A DNA stretch of 64,000 bases from a virus, in the IMG/VR virus record IMGVR_UViG_3300027733_000049, positions 10,239 to 74,238 of that record; one strand, written 5' to 3'. Each line of letters begins with the position of its first letter. Positions within the stretch are counted from its first letter, which is position 1. Under the pieces are notes generated by a model. It was not told the DNA's origin and ran no database searches. It was given only the letters and a program-made list of their open reading frames with translations. Positions 29,309 through 55,504 of this stretch are shown one piece after another. A program made the position numbers and the translations under genes.

Positions 29309-29932
29309 TTAACCTCCAAACATTTCTTTAAGTGCGATGTGTAACGCACGGGCTTGCTTGACCGTCAGGCTATCAAGCACATCATCCACGCTCCATTCAG
29401 TAGGTTGCTCGACCTTTGTACTGTTAGCCTTGAACTTCTCTACCAAGTCTGAGATGGAATGGTTTTCGTACTGTACGAAACTCTTAGGCATTTCTTTCAT
29501 TGCCTTCTTCTGCTCCTTCACAGCACGGGCATGGGCGGCACGGGCTACCGCCTTACTACGTTCCTCTTTAGCTTTTGCCTGTAATGTTTTACGGTCTGCT
29601 TCAGGAATCACCGTGTACGCATAGACGTAACGCCCATCAATACGTTCTGTTGATTGCGAACGGGTAACATAAAACCTATCCGAAAACTGCTTGAGCATTG
29701 ATGATGTAAAACTCAACGGTACATCGGGATGTAACACCGACAACTTGTTACGTAATCCAATGCTAGTGATTCCCGGGTTCTGCTCAATAACCGCCAATAT
29801 ACGATTTGTTATAGAGCTTTGTTTCTTCTCGTCTTTAGTTGTGTTTACCACTTTAATTTCCTCCTGTTGTGATTGATCTTCCTCGTCCCACATTTGTAGA
29901 ACTTTCTTCATTTCGTCAGCTATTGATCCCAC
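29309..29932 (-). CDS. hypothetical protein, possible winged-helix DNA-binding domain
   Basis: ILAVIEQNPGITSIGLRNKL...SSMLKQF...VTR resembles a wHTH; contains one 17-bp palindrome. Confidence 0.55.
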   Translation of the reverse strand: MGSIADEMKKVLQMWDEEDQSQQEEIKVVNTTKDEKKQSSITNRILAVIEQNPGITSIGLRNKLSVLHPDVPLSFTSSMLKQFSDRFYVTRSQSTERIDGRYVYAYTVIPEADRKTLQAKAKEERSKAVARAAHARAVKEQKKAMKEMPKSFVQYENHSISDLVEKFKANSTKVEQPTEWSVDDVLDSLTVKQARALHIALKEMFGG

Positions 29933-30236
29933 TTTGATCCCTCCATTCTTGTGTGATGTGATCTAAAATTTCCTGAACTTCTATCAGGTTCTCCTCATTG
30001 ACGACAATGGCAAAGCCACCGGCATCTTTGATCTGCGCTATGTTTCTGTCTTGCAGTGCAGTGGTCTTGCCCTTGCCTGCTTTACATTCGATAGCAATAA
30101 ATCTTCCCATGTAGCAGGCAACAATGTCGGGTATACCTGCTGATCCATACCCCCCTGCTATTGGGTAGAAGCAATACGCCCCTGCATCTTTAAGCAAGGC
30201 TACTACTTTGGTCTTTACTTTTTTCTCGGGTGTCAT
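29916..30236 (-). CDS. VRR-NUC domain nuclease (putative Holliday junction resolvase)
   Basis: TPEKKVK...GIPDI...FIAIECKAG..T.LQ. Confidence 0.85.
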   Translation of the reverse strand: MTPEKKVKTKVVALLKDAGAYCFYPIAGGYGSAGIPDIVACYMGRFIAIECKAGKGKTTALQDRNIAQIKDAGGFAIVVNEENLIEVQEILDHITQEWRDQSGINS

Positions 30237-30408
30237 TCTCTACTCCTTTCAGTTGTGCTTCGTAATATTTCAAGGGTAACCTTGCCTTGGCTTTCAAGTG
30301 TTTGCGTAACCAATCAGCACCGCCCATGTCTTGAAATATCAACCAATCTAAATCTGACATCCGCACTTGGCGTCCTATTAGTGGCATTGGTGGTTTAGGT
30401 CTTGGCAT
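30190..30408 (-). CDS. small protein, possibly ribbon-helix-helix
   Basis: RQVRMSD.DW..F...GGADWLR. Confidence 0.5.
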   Translation of the reverse strand: MPRPKPPMPLIGRQVRMSDLDWLIFQDMGGADWLRKHLKAKARLPLKYYEAQLKGVENDTREKSKDQSSSLA

Positions 30409-30418
30409 TAGTTTCCTT

Positions 30419-31021
30419 TCAAATTTTCATAAGAGTTGTGTTGTCTCCGGTAGCTACTGTCGTGTAGCCCAATTCTTTGTACTTCAATATGGTGTCTACC
30501 ACTTCTTTGGGAGAGGTCAAAGAATTCGATTCAAATTTAATTATCTTTGCCGGTCTGCTTTTTTCTTTCTTGAGTACTTCCAAATAACTGGACAGAATCA
30601 CGCAGTCATGCCCTTCAGTATCTACCTTTAACAAAGCGCAGTCATCTACTTGATACATACCAAACAATGTCTCAACAGAATACATTGGGATTTGTTTAGA
30701 TGTGAACACATCAACTGGATCAATGTTTCTTTTTGTTAAAACTTTTACAACTGTGGGGTGATACGAACTGATACTGTTACAACCACGTACCCACCAAGGT
30801 AAGCCATGTTTGCTTATGACCTCTTCTGATAAATAAAATACTTCTGCCACACCATCGTGATCTGATATTGCGGATAGTACTTTATGCACATGGGGTTTAC
30901 ATGGCAACCTGTTAAGGTAATAAAGTATTGGATCGACTGACAGCCCTATTGAATCGTCCATACATTTTTGAATCACAGTATCAAAATCAGATGTACCTAT
31001 TTCAATAAAGTCATACTTCAT
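30419..31021 (-). CDS. FkbM-family SAM methyltransferase
   Basis: FIEIGTSDFD, SVDP, LLKVDTEGHD, IKFE. Confidence 0.75.
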   Translation of the reverse strand: MKYDFIEIGTSDFDTVIQKCMDDSIGLSVDPILYYLNRLPCKPHVHKVLSAISDHDGVAEVFYLSEEVISKHGLPWWVRGCNSISSYHPTVVKVLTKRNIDPVDVFTSKQIPMYSVETLFGMYQVDDCALLKVDTEGHDCVILSSYLEVLKKEKSRPAKIIKFESNSLTSPKEVVDTILKYKELGYTTVATGDNTTLMKI

Positions 31022-31221
31022 CGCTTCATACCTCTTACATAAGCGGCAAAACTCATAGCAGTATCACCAAAGTATTTCATGGCATCAAACTCCTTGGCAA
31101 CTTCTTCTATCGTGGCGTTGCGTATCTCATCTACCAACCCAACCTTTACGGTATGTTCTTTGTCACGGTAATCGTAGTGTGCGCAACCACGTTCCCAACA
31201 ACCTTTGTCCATTAGCGTCAT
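31018..31221 (-). CDS. hypothetical protein
   Basis: ATGA-coupled ORF. Confidence 0.55.
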   Translation of the reverse strand: MTLMDKGCWERGCAHYDYRDKEHTVKVGLVDEIRNATIEEVAKEFDAMKYFGDTAMSFAAYVRGMKR

Positions 31222-31541
31222 GTGTTCTTCTCCTTGAGTTTGGCTTCAATGGCTCGGGCAAATTCAAACCTGTTTGCGTATGGCATCGTATTACTGATGG
31301 CAAATATTTCCGCATCATCCGTCAGCCCTACCCACTTACGTTCAGGCAATGGATGCCCTGCGTGTTTGTAGGCTTCGTCACGCCAAAGTTGCGCTCGTTG
31401 TTTGTTGTACTCACAGCTTGGGCAAGGGCGCACGTATTCTTGAATGTCATCATCCTCCATAGTTATCTGCATTTGTATTTGTCGTTTACGCCAACCACTT
31501 TGAATCTTCTCAACATCTTCGGGTGTGTGTGATCTTTTCAT
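31218..31541 (-). CDS. hypothetical protein (WVGLTD...ARAIEAKLKEKN type)
   Basis: Coupled ORF with a motif common in small phage early genes. Confidence 0.55.
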   Translation of the reverse strand: MKRSHTPEDVEKIQSGWRKRQIQMQITMEDDDIQEYVRPCPSCEYNKQRAQLWRDEAYKHAGHPLPERKWVGLTDDAEIFAISNTMPYANRFEFARAIEAKLKEKNT

Positions 31542-31562
31542 CTTGGTGCATCCTCATGGTTA

Positions 31563-32567
31563 TCAGGGTTGAACTTCGGTTGCTTCGTACCCTTGTCTTT
31601 CGGGTTCGGAAACGGGGGGAACGGTGGTGTCATTCTTTTTCTCCTCTTCCCAAGCGGTTCGCAATGCTCTACCACTTAGCTTTTTGTTTAAATAATCTAT
31701 GCCTGAAAATTCAATGTACTCTTGCATGGTGCGTACTCTGCCTAACCCATACACTCCCATATCTTTACCGTTAACCAAATCTTCAAGCCGCCTTGTTGTA
31801 CGCTTTTGTAATTCACCCCAATGTACAACTCGTTCTTGGGTAATATCTTTATCCCAGTGCCTCGGACGCTCCCCATACAAATGGTGCATAGGAAGGTGTG
31901 GCACATGAAATATGTCGTAGCCATGCGTAAATGCTCTTAACGCCATGGCTTGTTCCTCTCCATTGAAATACATATACGGGTCGTATGGCACATCGTACAC
32001 AAACTTACCCTGTGTAAAAAGGCAACCACCCGCAAGGTGTATCCCACGAATCGGTGTATCACGCTTAACTCTCGTTGCTACAAACTTCAGCTTCGAATGT
32101 TTAGGTTCGAACTGTTGTGCTTTGGATGAAACAATATGTACCAACACCTCCCTGCACATACGCCTCACAATCTTTCCCTCCTTGCGTTCAAACGATGCAG
32201 GGTAACTAGACACTATGCACTTGGGGTTTATCTTTGCACACTCGGTAGCGGCATTGATTAACTTCTCATCCCAATCTTGGTCGAATACTGAATGAGCATC
32301 GATCTGAAAGAACCAATCCTCATCGTTGTACATCGCCATACATAATGACCTTGCCCAACACGCACCTCGAGATTCTCTTGGATCAATACCAACATACTGA
32401 ATCTTCTTGCTCAGTGCATCGCTCACCTTGAGTCGCTCGTTTTCATACGCTTGTTCTACAACACCAAACGACAAACCATTTGGGTCTTTCGCCTTATTCA
32501 ATGCTTGCAGTACGGTGTGTTTAAGCATCTCATCTCGGTAGGATGCGATGCTGATGTAGATGCTCAT
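31563..32567 (-). CDS. GT60-like polypeptide/hydroxyproline GlcNAc transferase
   Basis: IYISIASYRD, SRGACWAR, QIDAHSVF, VPYDP..YFNGEE, RAFTHGYDIF. Confidence 0.8.
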   Translation of the reverse strand: MSIYISIASYRDEMLKHTVLQALNKAKDPNGLSFGVVEQAYENERLKVSDALSKKIQYVGIDPRESRGACWARSLCMAMYNDEDWFFQIDAHSVFDQDWDEKLINAATECAKINPKCIVSSYPASFERKEGKIVRRMCREVLVHIVSSKAQQFEPKHSKLKFVATRVKRDTPIRGIHLAGGCLFTQGKFVYDVPYDPYMYFNGEEQAMALRAFTHGYDIFHVPHLPMHHLYGERPRHWDKDITQERVVHWGELQKRTTRRLEDLVNGKDMGVYGLGRVRTMQEYIEFSGIDYLNKKLSGRALRTAWEEEKKNDTTVPPVSEPERQGYEATEVQP

Positions 32568-32755
32568 TGGTTGTTTGCTTCCCGCATTATGTCGTTGATA
32601 ATTTTCTTGATCTTTCCATACGCATCTGCCTTGGTGTATGGCATCTGCAATATGCTTTCGATCTCACGCAAAGCGTCATAGTATTCACCACCCTTCATTG
32701 CGTGCTGTAACTTATCCTCGTCCTCGGGGTAGGCAAATTCAAGTACTGCTTTCAT
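32564..32755 (-). CDS. hypothetical protein
   Basis: MKAVLEFAYPED small ORF, coupled. Confidence 0.6.
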   Translation of the reverse strand: MKAVLEFAYPEDEDKLQHAMKGGEYYDALREIESILQMPYTKADAYGKIKKIINDIMREANNQ

Positions 32756-32930
32756 TTACTCTCTCGCTTATTGGTGTCCACCCAAACCGTTTCCATGTGG
32801 CTTGCACATCTGCACCAGTTGTCCACACATATCGTGGATCATTGGCAGGAATGGTTGGCTCTGTGCGCTTAGAGAAAGGCACGGGGGGTAGTGGTATAGC
32901 AGGGTACGTATATTTAGGCTGTGCGCTCAT
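32739..32930 (-). CDS. hypothetical protein
   Basis: AAGGAG RBS; DVQATWKRFGWTP. Confidence 0.6.
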   Translation of the reverse strand: MSAQPKYTYPAIPLPPVPFSKRTEPTIPANDPRYVWTTGADVQATWKRFGWTPISERVNESST

Positions 32931-33225
32931 GTTGATCTCCTTCTTCTATGTAATACAAACGGTCGTGGACTTTGAATCCAACGCCCTTAATTAAGTTTCC
33001 CTCGGGTGCTATCCGCAAGATAGACACCGCCTCCATGATCCATCGTTCAACATCCTCTTGCGGGATATTTTTTCTTATCTTATTGTCATTAACACTTGGC
33101 ATTGTAAAGTCTACTACATCAAATGTACCATCGTCATTGATAGAAACCCTATAACTATCACCTTTTGTTTCTATCATGTTGATCATTACTTCCATCCAAA
33201 CATCCTTAGCTTCTTTGTAGTTCAT
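32914..33225 (-). CDS. hypothetical protein
   Basis: ATGA-coupled; C terminus resembles that of the upstream gene. Confidence 0.6.
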   Translation of the reverse strand: MNYKEAKDVWMEVMINMIETKGDSYRVSINDDGTFDVVDFTMPSVNDNKIRKNIPQEDVERWIMEAVSILRIAPEGNLIKGVGFKVHDRLYYIEEGDQHERTA

Positions 33226-34103
33226 ACGAACACCCAGTACTTATCATTGTCGATCTTGTAGCCAACATCCATGAGTGCAGTCTTACTACCTTCGTTGATC
33301 TGCAACACCGCAATCTTATCCCTGATACTCTCAGGAACATCTTGTAGGTTGAACACTACGGTAGGCTCAGTGTCTCCCTCGTAGCGATACTCAACCTTAT
33401 CGGTCTTAGCCCACACAAAACACTTGCGTGGTTTGTAGTTATCCATAGCTTGTAACTCTGCACCTTGCTCTCTCAAGATGTGTAGGCTTTTCCTAAATGA
33501 TTCTGTGGCGGGGGTATAGCCTGCTTGCACCATGAAATGCAACTCTTTAAGTATGTCGTCCCTCTGCATACGGGACGCTTCATACAACTTGTTCTGTGCA
33601 GGTTCTTTCATGTTGGCTATCGCACGCTCTAGATCAACGCCTGTCGATGCTACTACTTCAGTAAATGATTTAGGCTTGAGATACTGAAGTGCGTTCTTCA
33701 CACCATTGGCAAACTTCTTGGTTGTCTTGATGCGATACCCCTCGCTGTACGATGCGTACTTCTCATTCATGATGCGGTCGGACTCCACAACATACATCAT
33801 TTCTTTCTTGTCATTTAACTCAAGACCAATCTTACCAACACGCACAGTTGGGCAGTCCCTATACGCAACCGCTAAGTCTGCAAATACAAAGTACTCCAAG
33901 CCGTTGTACCGTGCGGGGCGGTAATCAGTATGCACAATCATGTCGGATCGTTTGTACTTGATCTCGTTATAGAACTTCAAGAGTGTGCCTGTCACGGGAA
34001 TATCACCAAGCCAAAACCCGTGGTTGTTTTGCTTGGCAGTATCAATGAGCGACACCAAACGGTCGTACTCGTATGTACCTTTGTAATCGTCTTTGCTAAT
34101 CAT
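33222..34103 (-). CDS. hypothetical protein
   Basis: Long ORF; ATG at 34103 after GGAGGG. Confidence 0.75.
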   Translation of the reverse strand: MISKDDYKGTYEYDRLVSLIDTAKQNNHGFWLGDIPVTGTLLKFYNEIKYKRSDMIVHTDYRPARYNGLEYFVFADLAVAYRDCPTVRVGKIGLELNDKKEMMYVVESDRIMNEKYASYSEGYRIKTTKKFANGVKNALQYLKPKSFTEVVASTGVDLERAIANMKEPAQNKLYEASRMQRDDILKELHFMVQAGYTPATESFRKSLHILREQGAELQAMDNYKPRKCFVWAKTDKVEYRYEGDTEPTVVFNLQDVPESIRDKIAVLQINEGSKTALMDVGYKIDNDKYWVFV

Positions 34104-34105
34104 GA

Positions 34106-34207
34106 TTAAGCCCTCCAATAAAATAAATCTAACAACACAACAACTAGACCGAGTAAAAATACTACTCGCTCTACCTTATCAATCCATGTCCAGTTATTCC
34201 AACTCAT
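34106..34207 (-). CDS. 33-aa membrane peptide, not in the ORF track
   Basis: MSWNNWTWIDKVERVVFLLGLVVVLLDLFYWRA; ATGA overlap with upstream gene, fills the gap. Confidence 0.55.
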   Translation of the reverse strand: MSWNNWTWIDKVERVVFLLGLVVVLLDLFYWRA

Positions 34208-35181
34208 TTGACTCTCCTTCCATTTGAATAAAACGGTACGCCTACATCCACTGCCACTTGTTTGTATGGTTTTGTTAGTCGATATAGATACTCACCACGC
34301 AACCTACTCTCAAGATGCTCACGGTCAGGGTATGTAGGTTCTGACACATGATTACTACCTGACCAAGTATGCTTCCACCTAGTATGTATAACAAACATCG
34401 CCTCAACTGCGTGCATCCACTTCTCACCAAACTCTTCGCCTTCGTTACGCACCAACCAATCGGCTTTGTCTAAAAGTTCATCCATGCTGTGCTTAAATCG
34501 CCAATCTCTGTTCTCATTCTCGGGTGTTACAAACGGACTCATGATCTCGTAGTAATTTAAGAACGGCTCAAGTTCTTGGTACACCTTCTTAACTTTCTCA
34601 CGATCAATCAACAACTTGTGTTCGGGTATGCCACCAATAACTTCGTAGAATGTTTTACCCTCACGTTCGTACGGTACGAAAGTCATTCTCTGCCCATCTT
34701 GGTAATAGTAGTTCTTCGAGCCATCGGGTTGATCTGCACACACATATTGTTTAGAACCAAACTTAACGTAACTAAGCCCTCTTGGAAACAACGCGCCTAA
34801 CATACCCCATGTAGTGTATGTGTGCATCCATTTAGGTGTGAACTCAAAACGCCCATCGGGGCAAACCATCAATACTGGATAGTAATCTTCAGCGTACCCT
34901 GTCACAGTAACTTTGCCTGTCGCTTGATCTCGTGAATGATTTGCATAGACCGAGCAAAACGCCATGCCGTACTTGTCACCCTCTTTACGCCATATCTCGA
35001 ACGTACGATGACGATCAGTCAATGGACGATGATCTGTCATGCCATGCTTTACACGCTGACCAATCAATGGCTTGACGCTCTCATACTTCTTTTTGGTTGT
35101 CTCGTAATCAACCATGCAGATGTTGTACCCACGATAACCAAGCCTATCGTAAACACTAGAAGGTTCCGGTAATTTTTTCAT
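34204..35181 (-). CDS. hypothetical early protein
   Basis: 325-aa ORF, AAAGGAA RBS. Confidence 0.8.
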   Translation of the reverse strand: MKKLPEPSSVYDRLGYRGYNICMVDYETTKKKYESVKPLIGQRVKHGMTDHRPLTDRHRTFEIWRKEGDKYGMAFCSVYANHSRDQATGKVTVTGYAEDYYPVLMVCPDGRFEFTPKWMHTYTTWGMLGALFPRGLSYVKFGSKQYVCADQPDGSKNYYYQDGQRMTFVPYEREGKTFYEVIGGIPEHKLLIDREKVKKVYQELEPFLNYYEIMSPFVTPENENRDWRFKHSMDELLDKADWLVRNEGEEFGEKWMHAVEAMFVIHTRWKHTWSGSNHVSEPTYPDREHLESRLRGEYLYRLTKPYKQVAVDVGVPFYSNGRRVK

Positions 35182-35253
35182 GATGTTCCTTTCAAAAAAT
35201 AATGAATGGGAAGTTTCGTACTGTACGAAACCGCCCTCAGAGATACCTGTAAC

Positions 35254-36435
35254 TTAGTCAACGTAGATGACTGCACCAGTAGTAGGTGTGGGCTTGTACC
35301 CACCGACAACACACCACAAGACGGGATGTTCCCACTTGCCCCAACTACCGACATAACCATCGGTCAACACGACAACACACTCGGGCTTGATGCCACGTTC
35401 CTTGATGTACACGGGGATACACGCAGGATCAGTACCACCGCCACCCGCAGGCTTAGTTGATGACACCAATTTATCTTGGTGATCACGGTCATATACTTCA
35501 TGACCTGCAACCTCTGTGTCCCAGTACAACAGATCAACAAGTTCAGGTGAGACGTTGGCACAGATAGCCTGCACCTCAGTCAGAAACTTGTTCACCTCTG
35601 TATCACCAATAGAGCCTGACATATCGACACCAATTACGATACGCCCCATGCTCTCGGACACAGTAGAGGGCATATACATATCGTGCTGTAACCATCTACG
35701 ATTAACACGTTGCCATGTGGATATATCCTTACCCACAGCCAATGATGAGATGAAGTCACGCAACTGTTCACGCCAGTCAACCTTGGGTTCGAGCAACGCA
35801 CCGATCTCACGGGACAAGTTACCACCCATCTTGCCTGCATGGATTTGACCTTGACGGATTGCTTGGTTCACCTCTTTGATGTGATCCTCAATCTCTTGCT
35901 GTGTCATGTCGCCTGTGTCCCAATCGTGTGAGTCAAAGCCACCTGCACCCTCATCACCATCTTCACCGCCACCACCCCCACCGCCTTGCTTGAGGATGTT
36001 GAATACTTCCTGTGAGTCCATGCCACGGAACTTCTCGCTGAGTAAGCCCATCTTAGGTAATACAACAAACCCATTCGTTGCCTTCTCAATGTCCTTGATG
36101 ATGAGGTTGATCACATAGTCACAAGCCATGTTCGCACACTTAGCGTGTTCCTCATACAGATGCTTCCACAAGAACGTATGCTGAAACAACTTGTGTAGAT
36201 TCTCATGCAAGATAACGCCACGCAACTCAGCATCGGGCAGAGCTTCAACAAACTCTTTGCCATAGATACAGTCGATGCCGTTGGTGCAAGCTGTTGGCAC
36301 AGTCTCATCTACACGGTACTTGCCTACCATAATGACGCCTGCATACTCCATCGTTGCCTTGTGTGCCATTAACTCCACATGAGCACGCTCAATGCGCTTA
36401 AGCGCAGTTAGAGATTGTGTTGCTGTTATAAACAT
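35254..36435 (-). CDS. metallopeptidase-vWA protein (DUF2201-like)
   Basis: TACTNG, LHENLH (HExxH), N.ACD..IN, MIDAS DMSGS, GGGTD, LTDG. Confidence 0.85.
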   Translation of the reverse strand: MFITATQSLTALKRIERAHVELMAHKATMEYAGVIMVGKYRVDETVPTACTNGIDCIYGKEFVEALPDAELRGVILHENLHKLFQHTFLWKHLYEEHAKCANMACDYVINLIIKDIEKATNGFVVLPKMGLLSEKFRGMDSQEVFNILKQGGGGGGGEDGDEGAGGFDSHDWDTGDMTQQEIEDHIKEVNQAIRQGQIHAGKMGGNLSREIGALLEPKVDWREQLRDFISSLAVGKDISTWQRVNRRWLQHDMYMPSTVSESMGRIVIGVDMSGSIGDTEVNKFLTEVQAICANVSPELVDLLYWDTEVAGHEVYDRDHQDKLVSSTKPAGGGGTDPACIPVYIKERGIKPECVVVLTDGYVGSWGKWEHPVLWCVVGGYKPTPTTGAVIYVD

Positions 36436-36511
36436 AATGATTTCCTTTCATGGTTAAAGATGTTGGGGGGCTTTCGTACTGTACGAAAGGGGTCCCCACG
36501 ATTTACTACTA

Positions 36512-37591
36512 TTACTTACGAGCAAACAAGTAATTGTTGTCAGCCGCCCACTTAGCGAATCTAGGATTCGTTGCCGCAATCGTACGCTTGGGACACATAT
36601 CGGACATGACGCTACGAGCGAACAAGCCTTGTGCTTCCTTAGACATACGAGGTAAGAACTGCATCCAAGCATCCATCGTGGACTTCTCAATGCGCTGTAC
36701 CGCTTTGGCAATCAACATACAACCCGCAGGGGCAGATGTAGGTACAGTCGCAGTAGTTGGAGACTTGATAAGGTCATCCCAGTTAGTCAACTGCGTATCC
36801 AACTTAATCATGGTCAACAAGTTGTGCATTGCCTTCTCACCTACTGTACCCTTCAGGGCATGACACATCACATCGTCACCCAAGATCATGGTGCGCTTGA
36901 TAACATCCGATGCTGTCTCTAAAGATCTTGGTGTAACGAACGCCATACGCACATCACGGGGATCATTGATGTATGTGTTCTGACGTGGATCTTCGTAGTC
37001 CTCGAACGATGCCAACATCTCAGGGAACTCTTGCACAGTCGCAATGACCACAGGGTGAAAGCCATTGTTGATGCCGTACTGCATAACTTCTTCAGCATTA
37101 GGCTTGCCAACACGAACCTGAATCACACGGTTACGAGCATGGGGCGGTACGTTATCACCGATACCTTCTATCGATAAGTTGGTAGTCGCAAACACAATAC
37201 CATCCAAGTCCCATATACCCAATGAACGCTCTTGCATAAGACGCAGGCAGGCATTGAGTACACCGCCCTTGGCTTTGCCGATCTCATCGAGCATCATCAC
37301 AACCTTCTTACCCTTGAAGTGCAAACCGAATTCCTCATTAGGCACAAAGCGGCACACCTCAACACCATCAATGTCCTTGATCTTGGGAACCATGAAGTCA
37401 CCAACATCTTTGGTAGTGATGTCAACGTAGCAAAAGAAATGATCCTTCAACTCAGGCTTGTTGCGTAGCATCTTCAGGATAGATGACTTACCAATACCCA
37501 TCTCACCTTGCGCTAAGACGGTACGCACATCACCAACAGCCGCAATCAAGTCAGCAGTTTGTGACAGGGACAAAGATTTATACATAGACAT
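36512..37591 (-). CDS. MoxR-like AAA+ ATPase
   Basis: Walker A GEMGIGKS, Walker B MLDE, ATTN, RNR, TPRS. Confidence 0.8.
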   Translation of the reverse strand: MSMYKSLSLSQTADLIAAVGDVRTVLAQGEMGIGKSSILKMLRNKPELKDHFFCYVDITTKDVGDFMVPKIKDIDGVEVCRFVPNEEFGLHFKGKKVVMMLDEIGKAKGGVLNACLRLMQERSLGIWDLDGIVFATTNLSIEGIGDNVPPHARNRVIQVRVGKPNAEEVMQYGINNGFHPVVIATVQEFPEMLASFEDYEDPRQNTYINDPRDVRMAFVTPRSLETASDVIKRTMILGDDVMCHALKGTVGEKAMHNLLTMIKLDTQLTNWDDLIKSPTTATVPTSAPAGCMLIAKAVQRIEKSTMDAWMQFLPRMSKEAQGLFARSVMSDMCPKRTIAATNPRFAKWAADNNYLFARK

Positions 37592-37689
37592 GGTTGATTC
37601 CTTTCAAAGAATTAAAAAACAACTTACACAATAAAACAACTAACACACAAGGGCAAGTTTCGTACAGTACGAAACCGCCCACCCATAAC

Positions 37690-38559
37690 TTACAGAGAGA
37701 ACTTGTCGAGCAACGCATCGACCTTGTTCTTGGTTTGCTCACGCAACATATCTGATTCACGCAATGACTGTGCATCTACATGACGCATGGTGTCCTCCAA
37801 CTCCATACGCATGGCTTCCAACTTCAGATCACCACCGATGTTGAAGTGCTTGAGCAACTGACACAACTCAACAGCGTTATCTACAAGCGAGTCACGAAAG
37901 ATTTTGCGCTTGCCATCTTCGGTATCACCAAGTCGCTCTGACATGGCAGTCAACACACCATGCAACCTATCCCACGCATCACGCATTGCATCGTTGAGCC
38001 GTGATGACAGCACACCTTCGTAATGATCCTGCATCTCACGCAAGCCTTCCTCACCAATGTCTACACGAAAGTCACCTGCCATAGGCAATGGTGTAAACGC
38101 ATATCGAAAGCCGAACTTGCCCACGATCTGATCACGGTGCGGATAGTCCTCACGATTGAATAGATCACCAAGTTGAAAAGCCGCCGCCGCAACAAGCGTG
38201 TCGTACTCATTAAGAAAGTTGTTGACAGATGTTGCGAACTGCGTCTCGTACTCGGACAGCCGTGACTTGTAGTCAATGAACGATGCCATGTTCAGCACAC
38301 GATCACCGTTGTCACCCCATGGCTGTGTCACCGTGTAGTGCCATGTACGAATCGCACTCGCAACTTTGTTGATCTCCTCCAACTTACCCGAACCTGCTAA
38401 TAGGTTCTTGTTGTAGTTGCCCGCCCGAGTCTTGGTGCTGTTTTGTTGGTCAACTTCTTCAGAGACACGCTTGTCCAACTTACGCCCAGTCCATACGGAC
38501 ATAGACAGATTCACGATCAGGGCAGAGCCTGACAACTTAGATACGTTTACTTGTTCCAT
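37690..38559 (-). CDS. hypothetical protein (DUF3150-like, from recall)
   Basis: WTGRKLD, T.PW...G.R.L, LGDLFNREDYP; first gene after the 38654-38682 promoter. Confidence 0.65.
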   Translation of the reverse strand: MEQVNVSKLSGSALIVNLSMSVWTGRKLDKRVSEEVDQQNSTKTRAGNYNKNLLAGSGKLEEINKVASAIRTWHYTVTQPWGDNGDRVLNMASFIDYKSRLSEYETQFATSVNNFLNEYDTLVAAAAFQLGDLFNREDYPHRDQIVGKFGFRYAFTPLPMAGDFRVDIGEEGLREMQDHYEGVLSSRLNDAMRDAWDRLHGVLTAMSERLGDTEDGKRKIFRDSLVDNAVELCQLLKHFNIGGDLKLEAMRMELEDTMRHVDAQSLRESDMLREQTKNKVDALLDKFSL

Positions 38560-38653
38560 GATATTTCCCTTTCATGTTTCATTACATTTCAATATGCTTT
38601 CGTACCGTACGAAACCACATCACCTTACACACAATACTACCTAACCAACCTAT

Positions 38654-38682
38654 ATTATAACAGATCAACATAGCTATGTCAA
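38654..38682 (-). promoter_or_regulatory. consensus sigma70 promoter
   Basis: TTGACA-17-TATAAT, exact, on the - strand. Confidence 0.85.
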
Positions 38683-38686
38683 TCTA

Positions 38687-38887
38687 TCACTTACTGGCAC
38701 GTGATTCAACTTCAGCCCGTGCCTTCTTGCACTCACGCACAAACGTCTCCCGATCCTCATCGTTGTCGATGAAGTGCGTAATAAATTTGCGTGCGGCATG
38801 AACTTCCCGCTTGGCGTCAATCAAGAAACCTGTAACCAGTACAGCCCACCCCAACAACACCAACTCAATCAATGTGAACTCAATCAT
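38687..38887 (-). CDS. small membrane protein
   Basis: GGAGG RBS; N-terminal TM helix. Confidence 0.6.
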   Translation of the reverse strand: MIEFTLIELVLLGWAVLVTGFLIDAKREVHAARKFITHFIDNDEDRETFVRECKKARAEVESRASK

Positions 38888-39008
38888 GCTTACCTCCATT
38901 TAAGTTGTTACGTATTACCCACCGAGCGTCAATGCGACTAGCAAACCATTTGCTCAATCGTTGGCACTCGTACCCTTCACACTCATCCTGCAATAACCCG
39001 TACGTCAT
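38880..39008 (-). CDS. 42-aa hypothetical protein, not in the ORF track
   Basis: MTYGLLQDEC...LSKWFASRIDAR; ATGA coupling, GGAGG RBS. Confidence 0.5.
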   Translation of the reverse strand: MTYGLLQDECEGYECQRLSKWFASRIDARWVIRNNLNGGKHD

Positions 39009-39241
39009 TCATCCTCCCATTTAATAACATTGCGTGTTTCATACTCAAACCATTCCTGTTGTGTGTACGGGAAACGCCCATACTCTTTGCGGAACATAAC
39101 TGCATCGCAGTCAGGGCATCCCTTCATATACGTCTTGCATGGCTTGACGTCACGAATAAACCACATCGTGTTGCTGTCACCCATGAATGGCGGGTTTGCC
39201 ATGCGTGCCAATATCTTGTGCTTGTTCTTGCGTACTTTCAT
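39005..39241 (-). CDS. hypothetical protein with Cys cluster
   Basis: AGGAGG RBS; C....GCPDC. Confidence 0.6.
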   Translation of the reverse strand: MKVRKNKHKILARMANPPFMGDSNTMWFIRDVKPCKTYMKGCPDCDAVMFRKEYGRFPYTQQEWFEYETRNVIKWEDE

Positions 39242-39244
39242 TTG

Positions 39245-39418
39245 TTAACCTCCTAAGTTCCAAGATTTAGGGGGTATCTGTTTCAATACCTCCCTTGCGC
39301 ACTCAATGTCGTGAGACAAGGTTTCAATCATTGACCCCTCTTCTATGTAACTGTCGGCTGACTGCATGAGGTTGTTCAACGCTTCACCTAACAGTTCAAT
39401 CTTTTCTGCATCAGTCAT
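39245..39418 (-). CDS. 57-aa hypothetical protein, not in the ORF track
   Basis: MTDAEKIELLGEALNNLMQSAD...; AAGGAG RBS, ATGA overlap. Confidence 0.55.
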   Translation of the reverse strand: MTDAEKIELLGEALNNLMQSADSYIEEGSMIETLSHDIECAREVLKQIPPKSWNLGG

Positions 39419-39651
39419 ATATCACTCCTTAAGTTCTTTTGGTTTGTTTGTTTTAGCGTGATACTTATTGCCGCTTTTGTAACGTACATATATCCGCCCT
39501 TTTGATACTCTTGCACCACAGTCCACGACTTGCGCTCTACTTGTGCGGCTTGCTCACCACACATCAAACACAATCGGTAACCATTACCCCACCGTTCGAT
39601 GTGTATGTCATCACCACATTCACGGCACTCTCTCCAATCAGAATGGAACAT
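39415..39651 (-). CDS. zinc-finger protein (DksA/TraR C4-like)
   Basis: CRECGDDI..ERW..GYRLCLMCGE. Confidence 0.6.
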   Translation of the reverse strand: MFHSDWRECRECGDDIHIERWGNGYRLCLMCGEQAAQVERKSWTVVQEYQKGGYMYVTKAAISITLKQTNQKNLRSDI

Positions 39652-40012
39652 CTTGCATCTCCTCTACTACTTTCGTACTGTACGAAATCAAACCCACCGA
39701 ACCTTCACGCTGTACTACCTGCATATCCTCCAAGCACAACGATGTGGTACGTACACATGGGTGTAGCTGTGTCTTGTGCTTAGTTGTTGTACGGCTGTAC
39801 TTGGTGCTGTTCTCGTACCATGTGTCCGACAATGGCTCGTATATAAACAATGGGAAGTTGTAGCGATACGAATACACGACATACCGTTTCACAATGTCCC
39901 GTGTCCCGTCAATGCCTTGCTCGTACCACTCACTAAAGATGTTCGAACCTCTGAACACCTTGTGTTCTCTTACATACTCCCGAGCATCACGGTTTGCTAT
40001 GTGCTTAGTCAT
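39638..40012 (-). CDS. hypothetical protein
   Basis: ATG at 40012 after AAGGGG; YVVYSY...PL, YSRTTTKH. Confidence 0.7.
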   Translation of the reverse strand: MTKHIANRDAREYVREHKVFRGSNIFSEWYEQGIDGTRDIVKRYVVYSYRYNFPLFIYEPLSDTWYENSTKYSRTTTKHKTQLHPCVRTTSLCLEDMQVVQREGSVGLISYSTKVVEEMQDVPF

Positions 40013-40044
40013 TTGTTTCCCCTTTCGTACGGTACGAAACCGCT

Positions 40045-40209
40045 TTACGCATACCATTTATAAATGCGGTGATACTCATCCACCACATCACCATACCCAA
40101 GTGTGAAAAGTAATTGGCACAAGACAACATCCGCTTCCTTGTGCGCTACCTCTACATCAAGGTCTTTCCCTAATGTCTTTAGCGTTTCGATTGCTTCTTC
40201 TCTCGTCAT
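40045..40209 (-). CDS. 54-aa hypothetical protein, not in the ORF track
   Basis: MTREEAIETLK...EVAHKEADVVLC.LL..LGY.DVV..Y....KWYA. Confidence 0.6.
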   Translation of the reverse strand: MTREEAIETLKTLGKDLDVEVAHKEADVVLCQLLFTLGYGDVVDEYHRIYKWYA

Positions 40210-40619
40210 TCCTCTACCTCCTGTGGTGTGTATGTCATGTCATAAAAACCTGATGCGTATTGGCTGTCCTGCTTGCCGAATCGGAAACCTACGTATCTGT
40301 ACGTACCATCGGGGCGTTTGCTACACGCATAGAAAAACCCTTTCGGATACTGCGATCTGTACAGCATGGCGTTCCTCGCCCATTGCGCACGGGTTTGTTC
40401 AATCCTTGCGTCTTTCCATTCATCGTAATAACCGCCTGCATACCAGTCGTTGATCTCGTATCGAGCACGATACAAGTCCCAGTCCTCATACTTGTGGTTT
40501 TGCAACCACTCAGGCACAACATCTGCAAGTGCGTTGTACATCTCGTAATCACTCAGCACGATGCTGTCAGGGAACTCGCCCATCTGCGCTTCCAATAATG
40601 ATTTGTATTTCATTTCCAT
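40206..40619 (-). CDS. hypothetical protein
   Basis: 137-aa ORF, GGGAG RBS. Confidence 0.65.
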   Translation of the reverse strand: MEMKYKSLLEAQMGEFPDSIVLSDYEMYNALADVVPEWLQNHKYEDWDLYRARYEINDWYAGGYYDEWKDARIEQTRAQWARNAMLYRSQYPKGFFYACSKRPDGTYRYVGFRFGKQDSQYASGFYDMTYTPQEVEE

Positions 40620-40792
40620 TCTCCCTTCATTAACTTCTGTTCGTCACGTCTAGCTACTTTCAACGCTTTCGTACGGTACGAATCTAGCTTGACATTATTC
40701 TGTCGGTCAGAAGTTGTATCGCTGACAAAGCCACACCACAACATCTTGTCACGATGTTTGTTATTGATTAACTTGCGTTCGAGCTTGTTCAT
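40610..40792 (-). CDS. hypothetical protein, first ORF of the early operon
   Basis: AAAGGA RBS. Confidence 0.55.
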   Translation of the reverse strand: MNKLERKLINNKHRDKMLWCGFVSDTTSDRQNNVKLDSYRTKALKVARRDEQKLMKGEWK

Positions 40793-40799
40793 GAGAGTC

Positions 40800-41540
40800 C
40801 TTTCGGTTGGTTGATTGAATAGTGGTCATGACGCCACCGCATAGCACACAACCAAGTGTGCTACACGCTATCGTCTCTTACGGGTTAGAGTCAACATAAC
40901 CCGCTGTCGTAATTGGTAGTTCTGTTGTGACTTGTACGCATGGCTTGAGCATTTGGTTTTTTACTAACTGCGATAGTGTTTGTCGTTGCCACATCTCCCG
41001 TTCGTACAGTACGAAAGGCTTGGCTTCCTAGTGGTTGTTGGTATGTGTTCGGCATTGTCATAGGACATACTTCGGGTTTCCCCAAGATTGATAGTCCCGT
41101 GTTGTGTATATAGACAACACTCTCACATACATACTCCACGTTAGGGCTGTTGCGTTATTAGCGCAGAGCAACCCACACATTTAGGCAGTATCTACATTAG
41201 CTTGCACATCGCTATCGGTTGTGTTCGGTGCGATACAGCACACTACTAACCTACACCACGATGTACTCCGACTGACTACGGAACGCCTATTCACTCCATG
41301 TAAGGTGTCATGGGTGAGTACATATCGTGGGCTTCGCAATCCATCCTATACATATACACCTGTCAACCTGTGGGCTTCTTGCATCAAGCAAGCGGCAGTT
41401 TGGTTCGTTGCGGTTACCCCAACTTTCGTACAGTACGAAAGCCAGAGAGGTTGCAACTGGTCTAGCAGATTTTTAAAGAGCGTGTGGTGTACCACCGACT
41501 TTCGTACTGTACGAAAGCGTCATAGGGAAATGTTCCAAAT
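40800..41540 (-). ncRNA. long, hairpin-rich early leader (candidate ncRNA)
   Basis: No convincing ORF; at least 6 stems, a boxA and three 17-bp palindromes. Confidence 0.4.
41473..41482 (-). promoter_or_regulatory. boxA antitermination element
   Basis: CGCTCTTTAA about 60 nt downstream of the predicted TSS. Confidence 0.65.
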
Positions 41541-41548
41541 GAGCTTTA

Positions 41549-41577
41549 ATTATACTAGGTTTACGCTACTTTGTCAA
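41549..41577 (-). promoter_or_regulatory. consensus sigma70 early promoter
   Basis: TTGACA-17-TATAAT, exact, on the - strand. Confidence 0.88.
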
Positions 41578-41618
41578 GCTGTTACTAGTTAGATATGGGG
41601 GGTATAACAGCACATTAG

Positions 41619-41926
41619 TTCTGCAATATTCTAGAGGGGAGAATAAAGGTAAGTCGTTGATTCATAAGGGTTTATTGATGCTTTTTTTTGTTTTATTCTA
41701 ATATTCTTGGTTTTTGGGGTTAAGCGAGACAATAAGCAAAGGTGAACAAGAACACGAGAAAACATCTGTGTGCATACACGTAAGAATGTATAAATACCAA
41801 AATAAATTTGGGGTGTATATATATTTATTTAAAGAATAATAGAATAATAGGGGTCAAAACCTTTGCAAGTGCTTGATTTCATTGAGGTTTGTTTTATTCT
41901 CATGCAGAGAATATTGCAGAATAATT
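41619..41926. other. candidate replication origin (AT-rich, AGAATA iterons, two IHF sites)
   Basis: 14-bp inverted repeat TTCTGCAATATTCT (41619) / AGAATATTGCAGAA (41908); WATCAANNNNTTR on the - strand at 41650 and 41866. Confidence 0.5.
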
Positions 41927-42003
41927 AGCGAGTAATACGGCATCGTACTGCCGTTACGTTTCGTACAGTACGAAAGTTCTAAGTTTCAGCACGTCCCACA
42001 AAG

Positions 42004-42210
42004 AGGTTACAGGTTTCGTACGGTACGAAAGTCAAGCTGGTATAAGTAGTAGTATCTGTAACACTATCTAGTGACACGCAGTACGACCCACAGTAAGGTT
42101 ACAGGTTTCCGTGGGGTTTCGTACTGTACGAAAGTTTGGTGGGTGTTGAGCGACCCACGATGTGCATACTGCCCACATCTTGTACGGCACGCGGTAAGGT
42201 TACAGGTTTC
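42004..42210 (+). repeat. three direct repeats AGGTTACAGGTTTC
   Basis: At 42004, 42096 and 42197. Confidence 0.85.
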
Positions 42211-42224
42211 AAAAGTTTGAGACG

Positions 42225-42256
42225 AAAAAAAACCCCCAACCTTTCGGTCAGGGGTT
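42225..42256 (-). terminator. intrinsic terminator
   Basis: CCCCUGACC-GAAA-GGUUGGGGG followed by U8 on the - strand. Confidence 0.8.
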
Positions 42257-42269
42257 TTGGGACTGAAGA

Positions 42270-42776
42270 TTACTTCAGTTTGATGCCAGAGGCTTCAAGG
42301 TAAGATTTGATCCCTTCATGCAAGGTATCAAACTCAGCGTTTTCATAACTTGTTTGCAAGTCATCCATGAAGCCTTCGAAGTCAGCGTCACGATAAACAG
42401 TTGCCAGTTTATCTGCAAACTCTTTTTTGCCTTTGGCGGCATTGGACGTGCCGCCTGCTTTCTTAGCACGTTGCAAGTTCCAATCGGTGACTGGCTTGCC
42501 TGATTCGACCGCCTTTTTAAAGGTGGGCAAATAGGTTTTCTGCGCCGTGCTTTGAGTCAAGCCTGAAGCCATGCAACCATCGACAAAGGCAGTTGCCAAA
42601 CCGCAACCAGTACCATCCTTTTTGTAAGTGCCAATCTTTGCCTTGGCTTTATGCAAAGCCAAGATGTTGTTATTGGCTTCAGTCTTAAAAGCTTCAGCAG
42701 ATGCCAAAGCTTTATTCATGTTGCCAACAGATGCGCCACAGGCTTGCGCCAAGGATGTCAGGGAAAGTGCGCTCAT
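42270..42776 (-). CDS. hypothetical protein, monocistronic
   Basis: ATG at 42776 after GAAAGGAAA; own terminator; the track extension to 43022 is unlikely. Confidence 0.75.
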   Translation of the reverse strand: MSALSLTSLAQACGASVGNMNKALASAEAFKTEANNNILALHKAKAKIGTYKKDGTGCGLATAFVDGCMASGLTQSTAQKTYLPTFKKAVESGKPVTDWNLQRAKKAGGTSNAAKGKKEFADKLATVYRDADFEGFMDDLQTSYENAEFDTLHEGIKSYLEASGIKLK

Positions 42777-43229
42777 GATGTTTCCTTTCAAAGAGCATCG
42801 GGGGAAACGAACGTCTCCGCAACCGACAACTGAACTGTACCTGAACCATACCAGTTTGCACGGGATAGCCCTACCCTTACAGCATTTTCGTACTGTACGA
42901 AAGTCGATACCCCCACCCCCAAGATATAGGGATTGGTTCCATGGCGAGTATGTGTACTGAGAATTGCTCGTTACAACACCATTTTTCAAATCACCCATAC
43001 ATATATACAAACAAAAACACACCCCCCATCTATGTTAGATGTAGTTCAAACATACCTCAACATCTTGAGGGGGGTACCCCCATACGAAAACGTCTGTACT
43101 TATTAATAAGTACCAACACAAAAACACCCCCCGGTAAGGGGACCCAAAAGGGTAGTCGTAAAAAAATTTTGTATTTTTTAAAATTTGATGGTACAGTCGC
43201 CCCATTCCCGTTAACCTCGGTGCAAAAAT

Positions 43230-43865
43230 TTGGACGCGATTCTTGTTACACCAGAATTAAATGTGCCCCCGCCATCTAAGATGACAAGCGAGGAGATTCA
43301 CGATTTGCGTGAACGGGCGCAGCGTCTCTTTAATACAGTAGAGTTCTTAGAAGCCAACGGTCTGGATACATCCAACCTTCAAGTTTCAAGCACAGACAAA
43401 AAAGCTGTAAGGGCTGTGTTTACAGACAGTCCTACTGGGGATCCTAAAGACGTTAATACACCGGCACGTGCCTTGATGCTCAAGGCGTTGTTGGATGAAT
43501 ACGACTTCGATGTGATACGGAACGCACAGCAGCTGCGCTCTTATATAAAGCTTAAGCTGTTGGAGCTAAGTACATCTAACCAAGAAAAGACACAACTCAA
43601 GGCACTGGACATGTTGGGCAAATTGTCGGACGTGGGGGCCTTTGTTGAACGGATCGAAGTCAATATAACTCACCGTACAACAGAAGAGTTGGAGAACGAG
43701 TTGGCCAGAAAGCTCACTGCATACATGAGTGACATCATTGATGTGGACACAAAAGATGTGTTAGCCAGTTATGACCCCTTACCAGATGCACCAGCAGTTG
43801 AAGTAATTGATCTGGATGCAGAACTGGGTGAAGTTGTCTTGGACGACGAGGGTGTGGATGACTGA
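43230..43865 (+). CDS. terS: terminase small subunit (putative)
   Basis: Directly upstream of terL; LKALDMLGKL..VG.F.ERIEV. Confidence 0.55.
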   Translation: MDAILVTPELNVPPPSKMTSEEIHDLRERAQRLFNTVEFLEANGLDTSNLQVSSTDKKAVRAVFTDSPTGDPKDVNTPARALMLKALLDEYDFDVIRNAQQLRSYIKLKLLELSTSNQEKTQLKALDMLGKLSDVGAFVERIEVNITHRTTEELENELARKLTAYMSDIIDVDTKDVLASYDPLPDAPAVEVIDLDAELGEVVLDDEGVDD

Positions 43866-52449: not shown

Positions 52450-52734
52450 ATGATGCAGACAGACGTAAAAGCCGTCCATTTGGATGCAAGCGGTGTGGGT
52501 TTTGCAGGCCGTACCAGAGTTCGTGGTTATCAAGTTGCTCCCGGCGGTACTGCTGGTGAAATTCAATTTTACGATAATGCAACCACTAATGCTGGCAACA
52601 ATTTGCTAACTCTACACGTTACAACTAACACAGCCGTTATTGCAACATTGATACCCGGTGAAGGTGTATTGTTTCAAAACGGGTTTTACGTAGTGTTACC
52701 AACAAACGCCTCTATCACGGTGTTCTATGGCTAA
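52450..52734 (+). CDS. small structural protein
   Basis: AAGGAG RBS; IPGEGVLF..G. Confidence 0.65.
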   Translation: MMQTDVKAVHLDASGVGFAGRTRVRGYQVAPGGTAGEIQFYDNATTNAGNNLLTLHVTTNTAVIATLIPGEGVLFQNGFYVVLPTNASITVFYG

Positions 52735-53041
52735 GAGTCCAGCATGGCAGAGGAAAGAAGGCAAGAACCCCAAGGGTGGCTTGAACGCCAAGGGGCGAGC
52801 CTCTGCGAAAGCGCAAGGCATGAACTTGAAACGTCCCCAGCCAGAAGGCGGCTCCCGGCGCGACTCTTTCTGTGCGAGGATGAGTGGCATGAAAAAGAAG
52901 CTAACCAGCGCAAAGACAGCCAACGACCCGGATTCAAGGATCAATAAATCTTTGAGGGCGTGGAATTGTGCTGATGGTGGTTACGTTTCTGCTGCTGATG
53001 GTTGTGCTACCAAAGGCAAAACAAAAGGACGTATGGTATGA
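52727..53041 (+). CDS. basic protein (DUF6321-like, from recall) with C-terminal KGKT tag
   Basis: KNPKGGLNAKGR..SFCARM..WNC, then ADGCATKGKTKGRMV. Confidence 0.7.
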   Translation: MAKSPAWQRKEGKNPKGGLNAKGRASAKAQGMNLKRPQPEGGSRRDSFCARMSGMKKKLTSAKTANDPDSRINKSLRAWNCADGGYVSAADGCATKGKTKGRMV

Positions 53042-53235
53042 CTGAACATCACGACACGGCTAAAGCAGTTGCAGATGGCGCAGCAGTCTTGACGACTATT
53101 GGCGTTATGGCTACATGGCTCCCGCCTTTGGCTTCTCTATTTACGATCATTTACCTTGGTCTTCGTATTTGGGAGTCTGAAACCGTTCGCGGTATGACCA
53201 AACGCAAAGGGGATTCAAATGCCAGCGACGAGTGA
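53038..53235 (+). CDS. small two-TM membrane protein (holin-like)
   Basis: ATGA-coupled; WLPPLASLFTIIYLGLRIWE. Confidence 0.55.
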   Translation: MTEHHDTAKAVADGAAVLTTIGVMATWLPPLASLFTIIYLGLRIWESETVRGMTKRKGDSNASDE

Positions 53236-53875: not shown

Positions 53876-53885
53876 AGGAACAACC

Positions 53886-55007: not shown

Positions 55008-55016
55008 GGAAAAATC

Positions 55017-55502: not shown

Positions 55503-55504
55503 CC

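Follow-up and report, generated by a model that had tools for sequence, protein, structure and literature searches.

What reads a palindrome that a phage repeats sixteen times along one arm of its genome, and to what effect? We addressed this question for a 64,000-nucleotide (nt) stretch of viral DNA, hereafter the window, which comprises bases 10239-74238 of the 74,238-bp IMG/VR virus record IMGVR_UViG_3300027733_000049 (CheckV completeness 100%). The palindrome, TTTCGTAC-N-GTACGAAA, is confined to the early arm, and an original prediction made from the sequence of the window had proposed that a dimeric protein binds its many copies. We find that the palindrome exists in several versions among related phages, and that these versions change together with p168, a 168-amino-acid (aa) protein encoded by the first gene of the leftward early arm.

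Sixteen palindromes and the protein that varies with them

Scanning with the pattern TTTCGTACNGTACGAAA, with up to 2 mismatches allowed, recovered the same 16 copies as the original prediction, 13 of them perfect and 3 with one mismatch at position 1 or 17. All four bases are represented at the centre, as had been noted. Dinucleotide-preserving shuffles gave an expectation of 0.01 copies, and none of 100 shuffles gave more than 1, which excludes chance as the source of the 16 copies. The full 74,238-bp record has 16 occurrences of the 15-base core, all within window positions 29464-42902; the late arm, where none had been seen by eye, holds none. The copies, by window position, are as follows.

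42886..42902: site 1, perfect; upstream of the p168 gene, 24 nt ahead of the -35 element of the probable p168 promoter, its centre at about -65 from the estimated p168 transcription start
42117..42133: site 2, perfect; non-coding, between iteron-like repeats
42014..42030: site 3, perfect; immediately behind TTGAC and sharing bases with the start of iteron-like repeat 3
41959..41975: site 4, perfect
41500..41516: site 5, perfect; centre at about +34 from the estimated start of early promoter P1
41424..41440: site 6, perfect; centre at about +110 from P1
41000..41016: site 7, one outer mismatch; within a conserved non-coding leader
40667..40683: site 8, one outer mismatch; 47 nt ahead of the start codon at 40619
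40023..40039: site 9, perfect; after a stop codon and ahead of the ribosome-binding site (RBS) of the gene starting at 40012
39671..39687: site 10, perfect; 19 nt ahead of the start codon at 39651
38598..38614: site 11, perfect; centre at about +41 from the estimated start of early promoter P2
37658..37674: site 12, perfect; junction after a 289-aa gene, with flanks GGGCGG/CTTGCCC that lengthen the stem
36472..36488: site 13, perfect; junction after the ATPase gene, with GC-rich flanks
35214..35230: site 14, perfect; junction after the 393-aa phrog_1314 gene, with flanks GGGCGG/CTTCCC
34665..34681: site 15, one outer mismatch; within a 325-aa open reading frame (ORF)
29464..29480: site 16, perfect; distal, within a 207-aa ORF

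A close relative (G001) has an equivalent of the distal copy, site 16. A mobile palindromic element is ruled out, as the flanks of the copies share no sequence.

Relatives were collected through the ATPase gene (28 viral contigs) and through an alignment of p168 (67), giving about 70 metagenomic phage contigs overall, and inverted repeats were counted de novo on each contig. Each contig proved to have one dominant palindrome, always of the form TTC-xx-A-y-N-r-T-xx-GAA. Five versions, uniform within a genome, can be told apart by their core: CGTAC, CATAC, CCCAC, CATAT and CCTAC. When five near-complete genomes were searched with a degenerate pattern, each showed its own version only, in 6-16 copies confined to 6-9 kb of the early arm. 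Such uniformity within genomes, combined with differences between them, does not fit a mere hairpin and requires a phage-encoded, sequence-specific reader acting in trans. Two hybrid sites (L110:14999 and L117:4269), both in CCTAC-version genomes, join one CATAC half to one CCTAC half, TTTCATAC-N-GTAGGAAA, and cannot form a perfect hairpin.

Among the proteins encoded near the sites, it is the product of ORF 42270-43022 that diverges in step with the version. As listed, this ORF includes an upstream extension that is missing from the orthologues, and comparison with these places the true start at ATG 42776. The gene and the terminator behind it are:

42270..42776, minus strand: p168 gene, 168 aa plus stop (coding 42776-42273), start codon ATG 42776, RBS GAAAGGAAA
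42229..42258, minus strand: strong intrinsic terminator directly 3' of p168, a 13-bp stem followed by T8, kept in relatives

The original prediction had named ORF 42270-42776 first among its candidate partners, and had asked for a motif scan in related genomes combined with a search for the ORF that co-varies. This is what p168 does, while the other candidate ORFs gave no co-variation signal with the motif version.

Signature residues of p168 predict the version in 56/56 distinct homologues, and in 57/57 once a contig found later is added. This last contig, from a pond metagenome-assembled genome and retrieved in a single-protein search, encodes a homologue with T81 and carries seven CGTAC sites, as predicted; it is probably a binned phage fragment and not evidence of a host. 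T81 is found in all 14 CGTAC proteins and in no others, V81 or N81 accompanies CATAC, CCCAC goes with KK at 73-74, L85 and DWGGTK at 98-103, and CATAT goes with EWNPAQ. CATAT arose twice, both times with a change of DWN..R to EWNPAQ, and R103Q coincides with the change of palindrome G10 to A. A 60,129-bp viral contig (L020 / L095 / L107) encodes two p168 paralogues, one with the CATAT and one with the CCCAC signature; it carries both kinds of site, with a CATAT-type site behind one of its strong promoters. The paralogues lie at opposite ends of this contig and would become neighbours were these ends joined.

Per-column mutual information, computed for 13 protein families, gave a ranking too noisy for use, topped by hypervariable proteins that have few orthologues, and we used tree counts and signature residues. 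On trees of backbone proteins (terminase, ATPase and others) the version changes 7-10 times, and on that of the C-terminal domain of p168 8 times, whereas the N-domain tree (first 24 homologues) has only 5 changes. An N-domain tree of all 56 homologues that leaves out the signature columns requires 10 changes, against a mean of 31 after shuffling. In a 21-member clade, every switch between CGTAC and CATAC pairs with a switch between T81 and V81 (5 pairs on the best tree, 1 on well-supported branches). Neither the C-terminal domain, which exists as two exchangeable alleles, nor the backbone genes track the version, and the genomes are mosaic. Perfect co-variation despite mosaic recombination beside and inside the gene argues against mere linkage. 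Taken together, these comparisons make a link between p168 and the sites highly probable. A restriction or methylation target is ruled out by the confinement of the palindrome to one arm and by its co-variation with p168.

Placement of the sites at promoters and gene junctions

While just 19% of the span is non-coding, 65% of the sites in the relatives are intergenic, and three placements recur. The promoter elements of the window that bear on them are:

42834..42868, minus strand: probable p168 promoter, with box CTATCCCGTGCAA at 42868-42856, GTGCAA as -35, a 16-nt spacer and -10 TACAGT at 42839-42834
42881-42876, minus strand: TGTAAG box, upstream of the p168 promoter box
41549..41577, minus strand: early promoter P1, TTGACA-17-TATAAT
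38654..38682, minus strand: early promoter P2, TTGACA-17-TATAAT with a TG extension

The first placement is upstream of p168 itself, where a cognate site lies 103-181 nt ahead of the ATG in 54/56 homologues. This upstream site is followed in the relatives by a conserved box, TGTMAR-N7-CTATCCCGTGCAA, and in 50/52 unique contexts a hexamer with at least 4/6 matches to TATAAT (TGTAAT, CATAAT, CACAAT or TACAGT) stands 16-17 nt after GTGCAA, 29 of them with a TG extension. At random positions, at least 4/6 matches are found in 8.5% and 5/6 in 0.8%. Because it precedes this conserved promoter-like element, the upstream site, whose centre is at -55 to -80 from the predicted p168 start, is probably excluded from the p168 mRNA.

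The second placement is just behind strong promoters. The original prediction had described two exact TTGACA-17-TATAAT promoters, each followed by a copy; both are present on the minus strand (41577-41549 and 38682-38654), and the copies begin 32 and 39 nt after their -10 hexamers. The arrangement is general: in 56/58 strong sigma-70 promoters of the early arms of this phage and its relatives, the centre of a cognate site falls at +28 to +46 from the estimated start (P1 +34, P2 +41). An additional site at -59 to -69 is carried by 4/58 of these promoters; like the p168-promoter upstream site, these sites at about -60 seem to lie outside the transcripts. The third placement is at gene junctions, often just ahead of the next RBS. 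Here, too, the earlier description of copies 10-70 nt before early gene starts holds for several start codons.

p168 and its probable target

p168 belongs to a new protein family and is the probable reader of the palindrome, in keeping with the earlier suggestion that the partner might be new. Pfam scans of 21 full-length and 43 core-domain members returned no family, including no helix-turn-helix (HTH) family, and PHROGs returned no match. With the p168 model, Foldseek gave only E >= 1, with no HTH protein standing out, and the VIA fold search gave Z <= 5.2 for the whole protein and <= 3.8 for the 69-residue core. A sequence search of the PDB yielded no credible solved relative; matches to Ika4 and Ika8 were rejected as repeat artefacts. 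A protein atlas search found unnamed viral clusters only, a tblastn search against cultured phages found no match, and the 614 homologues in a metagenome protein set are all unnamed.

AlphaFold (AF2) models are all-helical, with a predicted local distance difference test (pLDDT) score of 84. A long N-terminal helix (4-43) is followed by a loop, helices 59-70 and 75-92 and a short helix (101-107), and then by a disordered Lys/Gly linker and a three-helix C-terminal domain. The specificity residues map to the start of helix 75-92 and to segment 98-103. The classical 20-residue helix-turn-helix pattern is matched by the local sequence FVDGCMASGLTQSTAQKTYL, which has Gly at 9 and a hydrophobic residue at 10 and includes a recognition-helix-like stretch, QSTAQKTYL, of the Q-S-x-x-x-K type that is also followed by the recognition helix of lambda Cro. 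The modelled pair 59-70 / 75-92 may be HTH-like.

We lean towards a reading in which p168 dimers occupy the sites in double-stranded DNA, regulate the p168 gene and block or tune early transcription. The sites themselves, their positions and their co-variation with p168 are established; a DNA rather than RNA target, dimeric binding and a repressive direction we infer. In the major groove of DNA, Arg typically reads G and Gln reads A; the pairing of R103Q with G to A, and of a hydroxyl-to-methyl change at residue 81 with G:C to A:T, fits such a readout of B-DNA. In 219 non-redundant sites from the relatives, positions 2-16 are almost invariant on both arms, with a single G-U-type variant, while 29% lack pairing at the outermost positions 1/17. 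A joint change (C/G to T/A) affected positions 8 and 10, which a 1-nt loop prevents from pairing. The flanks show a symmetric preference, R at -2 and Y at +2, without co-variation of pairs (73 Watson-Crick pairs observed, 79 expected).

Under this model, each p168 subunit of a symmetric dimer would read one half-site, R-N-TTTC-xx-A-y, with the helix pair 59-70 / 75-92 (QSTAQKTYL) reading base pairs 4-6 and the DWNLQR segment (98-103) reading the inner base pairs. The site about 55-80 bp upstream of its own start would provide autoregulation. Through the sites at about +35 to +45, together with the junction sites, accumulating p168 would halt or restrain host RNA polymerase along the early arm. 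The overall outcome would be a Cro-like or roadblock-type early shut-off, and the specificity versions would keep related co-infecting phages from cross-regulating one another.

Several points weigh against repression by a DNA-bound dimer. The centre base is biased on the coding strand (C 106, G 42, T 36 and A 35 of 219 sites, that is, 48%, 19%, 16% and 16%), although the CCCAC version instead favours T or G. A symmetric dimer on duplex DNA could not read such a bias, which hints at something strand-specific, either RNA or transcription. Foldseek, VIA and Pfam gave no fold or family evidence that p168 binds DNA. The order promoter region, site, p168 and terminator, followed by a site beside boxA in the P1 leader, resembles lambda pL-nutL-N-tL1. 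There is also a weak similarity, E 0.05, between p168 and the RNA-binding ribosomal protein S7. The sites centred near +40 lie beyond the usual footprint of RNA polymerase, so that repression from them would need a roadblock or looping. Moreover, the p168 promoter and all transcription starts were predicted from sequence. Finally, independent switches of the version are few (1-5 each), and a sign test cannot reach significance. Of the original proposal, the part that stands is a phage-encoded reader with many sites, backed by co-variation across the relatives.

An RNA target is the main alternative. p168 would then recognise a hairpin (6-7 bp stem, Y-N-R triloop) in the RNA of early transcripts as they emerge, in the manner of lambda N at nut, and would act either in processive antitermination past its own terminator and along the arm, or as a translational repressor or mRNA stabiliser near RBSs. 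We consider this possible, but doubt it. In the lambdoid phages, co-variation of the specificities of N and its boxB hairpin is known. The leader sites at +28 to +46 behind strong early promoters (56/58), the strong terminator after p168 with more sites beyond it, the many sites 10-70 nt ahead of start codons and the strand-biased centre base would all suit such a model. However, the site with the best conservation precedes the probable p168 promoter and so is outside that mRNA, and some sites are at -59 to -69 of strong promoters. Recognition of a hairpin normally preserves pairing rather than the sequence of the stem, yet here both arms of the stem keep the same sequence throughout, with hardly any G-U variants. 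The complementarity of positions 8 and 10, which cannot pair, and the symmetric but unpaired flank preferences point the same way. p168 has 2 Arg and no arginine-rich motif, and it is predicted to be folded.

A profile of the p168 core (residues 44-112, window 42441-42647, minus strand) matched residues 31-78 of Thermus thermophilus S7 at E 0.05, with the common pattern DG..A..F.D.C...T.Q..L..FK.AVE..KP. This favours RNA, but the match is limited to one species, and the Pfam S7 model detects 2/43 members at E >= 0.24; S7 is not among the fold matches of p168. At the level of sequence, the similarity is a lead towards RNA binding and no more. One metagenomic p168 homologue is labelled 'ribosomal protein S7' by its source.

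A canonical boxA beside the P1-leader site would also speak for RNA. In the window it is found at:

41470..41481, minus strand: boxA-like GCTCTTTAAAAA, 17 nt after site 5

Relatives of every version have GCTCTTTAACAA or GCTCTTTAAAAA beside the cognate site in this leader, the site standing 2-28 nt before boxA or about 15 nt after it. This spacing is not fixed, and boxA occurs in this leader only. Downstream of P1 and boxA (window about 40900-41420, minus strand), the leader runs for about 500 nt, looks untranslated and has long invariant blocks in relatives of all versions. It includes a hairpin with compensatory changes (CGT-TC-CG / CC / GC / CT) around the loop TAGTCAGT; indel lengths in the leader are not divisible by three, and its longest ORFs encode 26-78 aa. 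An Rfam scan of 34000-43300 gave no match, and the leader is a candidate for a new structured RNA of phages. Without translation, such an RNA requires Nus-type protection from Rho, and the presence of boxA is sufficiently explained by the leader that follows it. In leaders without the structured RNA, the site is kept and boxA is missing. Two RNA runs contain small shares of this DNA in the form of contigs, and these RNA-library contigs of relatives span several early-arm sites; their ends and strand are not readable, and as support for RNA they are weak, since DNA carry-over is possible.

A more far-reaching proposal is that p168 represents a new class of nucleic-acid binder with a new fold, possibly derived from S7, which reads a hairpin or the non-template strand and serves as an N-like but non-lambdoid antitermination system or early switch. 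We regard this as rather unlikely. In such a system, changes at one to a few residues would suffice to reset the specificity: T81/V81 may set G:C versus A:T at base pair 5, and R103/Q103 may set G versus A at base pair 8. Reading of a hairpin may explain the strand-biased centre, and boxA and the conserved structured leader may cooperate.

The region between the p168 terminator and P1 (41815-42210) combines three sites with iteron-like repeats and an AT-rich element, in a layout common to all versions:

42210-42181, 42109-42081 and 42017-41989, minus strand: three iteron-like repeats, GAAACCTGTAACCT..N..GYGSNCGTRC, of about 30 nt each, interleaved with sites 2-4
41815..41850, minus strand: AT-rich element, direct repeat CTATTATTCTATTATTCT followed by ATATATATA, kept in relatives

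The iteron-like consensus in relatives of every version is GAWAMCTGTWNCCTY...GCGKGCCGYA. From its sequence, the AT-rich element is a candidate origin unwinding region, and the iteron region may be a replication origin or, possibly, an unusual promoter class.

In another reading, p168 would be an activator on DNA, acting from about 55-80 bp upstream on its own promoter and on palindrome-GAAACCTGTAAC-N7-box units. These units would be middle promoters or would give rise to origin-activating transcripts, and the consensus early promoters might be repressed, a dual switch like that of phi29 p4, a protein which binds inverted repeats and both represses and activates. We consider this improbable. 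It would account for a site at -55 to -80 of a promoter with a poor -35 and an extended -10, and for the same TGTMAR-N7 box after sites 1-3. However, the distances from site to p168 promoter cluster about -56, -66, -72 and -79 without a clear helical phase, no -10 element can be recognised in the iteron-like repeats, and most sites, those at +40 and before RBSs at junctions, leave no space for a promoter downstream.

Quite improbable, in our view, is a role of the palindromes in replication, DNA entry or protection, whether in organising an origin or as a parS-like or anti-defence mark on the first-entering arm. The three sites interleaved with iterons beside an origin-like AT-rich element, and the restriction of all sites to one arm, would agree with such a role. 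It would not lead one to expect the tight coupling of sites to promoters (56/58 at about +40) and to gene junctions, and the sites are spread over 13 kb. The parS-like mark raised by the original prediction finds no support: domain searches found no ParA or ParB domain, and no tyrosine integrase or serine recombinase, in the 74-kb record, and a six-frame search of the whole record for the ParB N-terminal domain PF02195 gave no match at E <= 1. The absence of an integrase had been noted before.

Very improbable, finally, are elements that act by structure and to which p168 is merely linked, either RNA elements (RNase III-type, stabilisers or terminators) or N4-type hairpin promoters. The three junction copies with extended GC-rich stems described in the original prediction, which had also raised processing hairpins like the T7 early RNase III sites as an alternative, are real; among the 219 sites, 18 have at least 4 contiguous flank pairs against about 8 expected. 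Stem extension is nevertheless no general property, because flank pairing falls to chance beyond 1-4 bases, with no excess of G-U over A-C on the coding strand. RNase III needs roughly two helical turns, whereas the stems are 6-8 bp, and no U-tracts follow them. The early promoters of N4, recognised by a virion RNA polymerase, are hairpins with a stem and a 3-nt loop, and such polymerases are hard to detect. The geometry here is similar, the centre base on the template strand is a purine in 65% of sites, and a 2161-aa virion protein without assigned function is present. Yet Pfam found no domain, and no RNA polymerase domain, in this and other large proteins, and perfect sigma-70 promoters already serve the arm. 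It is sequence rather than pairing that is conserved, changing in concert within each genome, and the co-variation with p168 is perfect despite mosaic recombination.

Genome context and known systems

The gene content of the record shows two divergent arms that meet near 43.1 kb. From 43 kb down to 19 kb, the minus-strand early arm encodes small proteins without assigned function, the ATPase, the phrog_1314 protein and a glycosyltransferase, as well as DNA polymerase A, an exonuclease, a helicase and a primase-helicase. The plus-strand arm begins with terminase and portal protein. The phage is apparently lytic. Nucleotide searches with the early arm, in near and distant modes, gave no match among cultured phages; their nearest DNA polymerase, from Pseudomonas phage KPP25, shares 36% identity. 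The sequencing runs containing this DNA are freshwater metagenomes.

Two further observations concern the layout. A terminator-like hairpin with a T-run (window 43126-43143, minus strand) points leftward just upstream of the start of the early arm; it sits in the divergent region ahead of the terminase genes and has no obvious gene to terminate. In the record (G000), small proteins encoded in bases 486-7278 and in bases about 62965-71320 (window 52727-61082) match the same orthologues in relatives, and the record, at 74 kb, exceeds the relatives by 7-14 kb. The likeness of its ends may reflect a diverged duplicated module or an assembly overlap.

p168 and its sites provide a testable regulator-site pair for a large group of uncultured freshwater phages. 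The five specificity versions, with their matching residue changes, amount to a ready-made recognition code in a protein without known family or fold. The system shows how an apparently lytic phage may wire its whole early arm to one small protein, and also that an immunity-like diversification of specificity occurs outside the known temperate systems. If the target is in fact RNA, the pair would constitute a new system of antitermination or translational control.

As a network of one regulator and many sites, the system is like the stoperators of L5, the conserved inverted repeats (CIRs) of phiC31, the C1 operators of P1 and KorB of RK2, and it is a member of none of these. With the stoperators of Cluster A mycobacteriophages (L5 gp71) it shares one protein with many near-identical sites in a transcribed arm, often intergenic, and a specificity that differs between phages. 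Stoperators are asymmetric 13-bp sites, oriented with transcription and present in dozens per genome, in temperate phages that carry an integrase. The stoperator-like character suggested by the original prediction holds for the many sites in one transcribed arm and fails for their symmetry and lack of orientation: here they are perfect 15-17-bp palindromes with a hallmark position at +28 to +46, in a genome without integrase, resolvase, ParA or ParB, and p168 matches no HTH family. The CIRs read by the phiC31 repressor (gene c) are closer in form, being 17-bp inverted repeats in many early-region copies, often intergenic, that serve one phage regulator. phiC31 is temperate and its repressor is larger; p168 has no homology to it, the present phage has no lysogeny module, and its group has several co-varying specificity versions.

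KorB of RK2, a global regulator of the ParB family, acts on OB operators, 13-bp palindromes (TTTAGC-S-GCTAAA) at 12 places. Both systems use identical, odd-spaced palindromes whose centre base is free, some at promoters and others close by or distant, but ours resides in a phage genome without a ParB_N domain. The Gal repressor has operators at -60.5 (OE) and +53.5 (OI), and the four promoters with paired sites at about -59 to -69 and +35 to +45 would be compatible with looping of this kind. Unlike in Gal, the upstream partner is present at only 4/58 promoters, and neither looping nor a cofactor is indicated.

Lambda offers two comparisons. With N and nut, the system shares the order promoter, site, first early gene and terminator, a hairpin-capable element beside boxA and the co-variation of protein and site. 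In contrast to N, which is small, arginine-rich and disordered, p168 is a folded helical protein of 168 aa, with 16 sites instead of 2 and an invariant stem sequence. From Cro and CI it differs in that its 16 sites are dispersed rather than arranged in two clusters of three, lie downstream of promoters rather than over them and go with a protein without Pfam HTH or fold match. What it has in common with Cro and CI is a 17-bp dyad with an uncontacted centre, a recognition-helix-like Q-S-x-x-x-K sequence, a site at its own promoter and a heteroimmune-style diversification alongside mosaic exchange.

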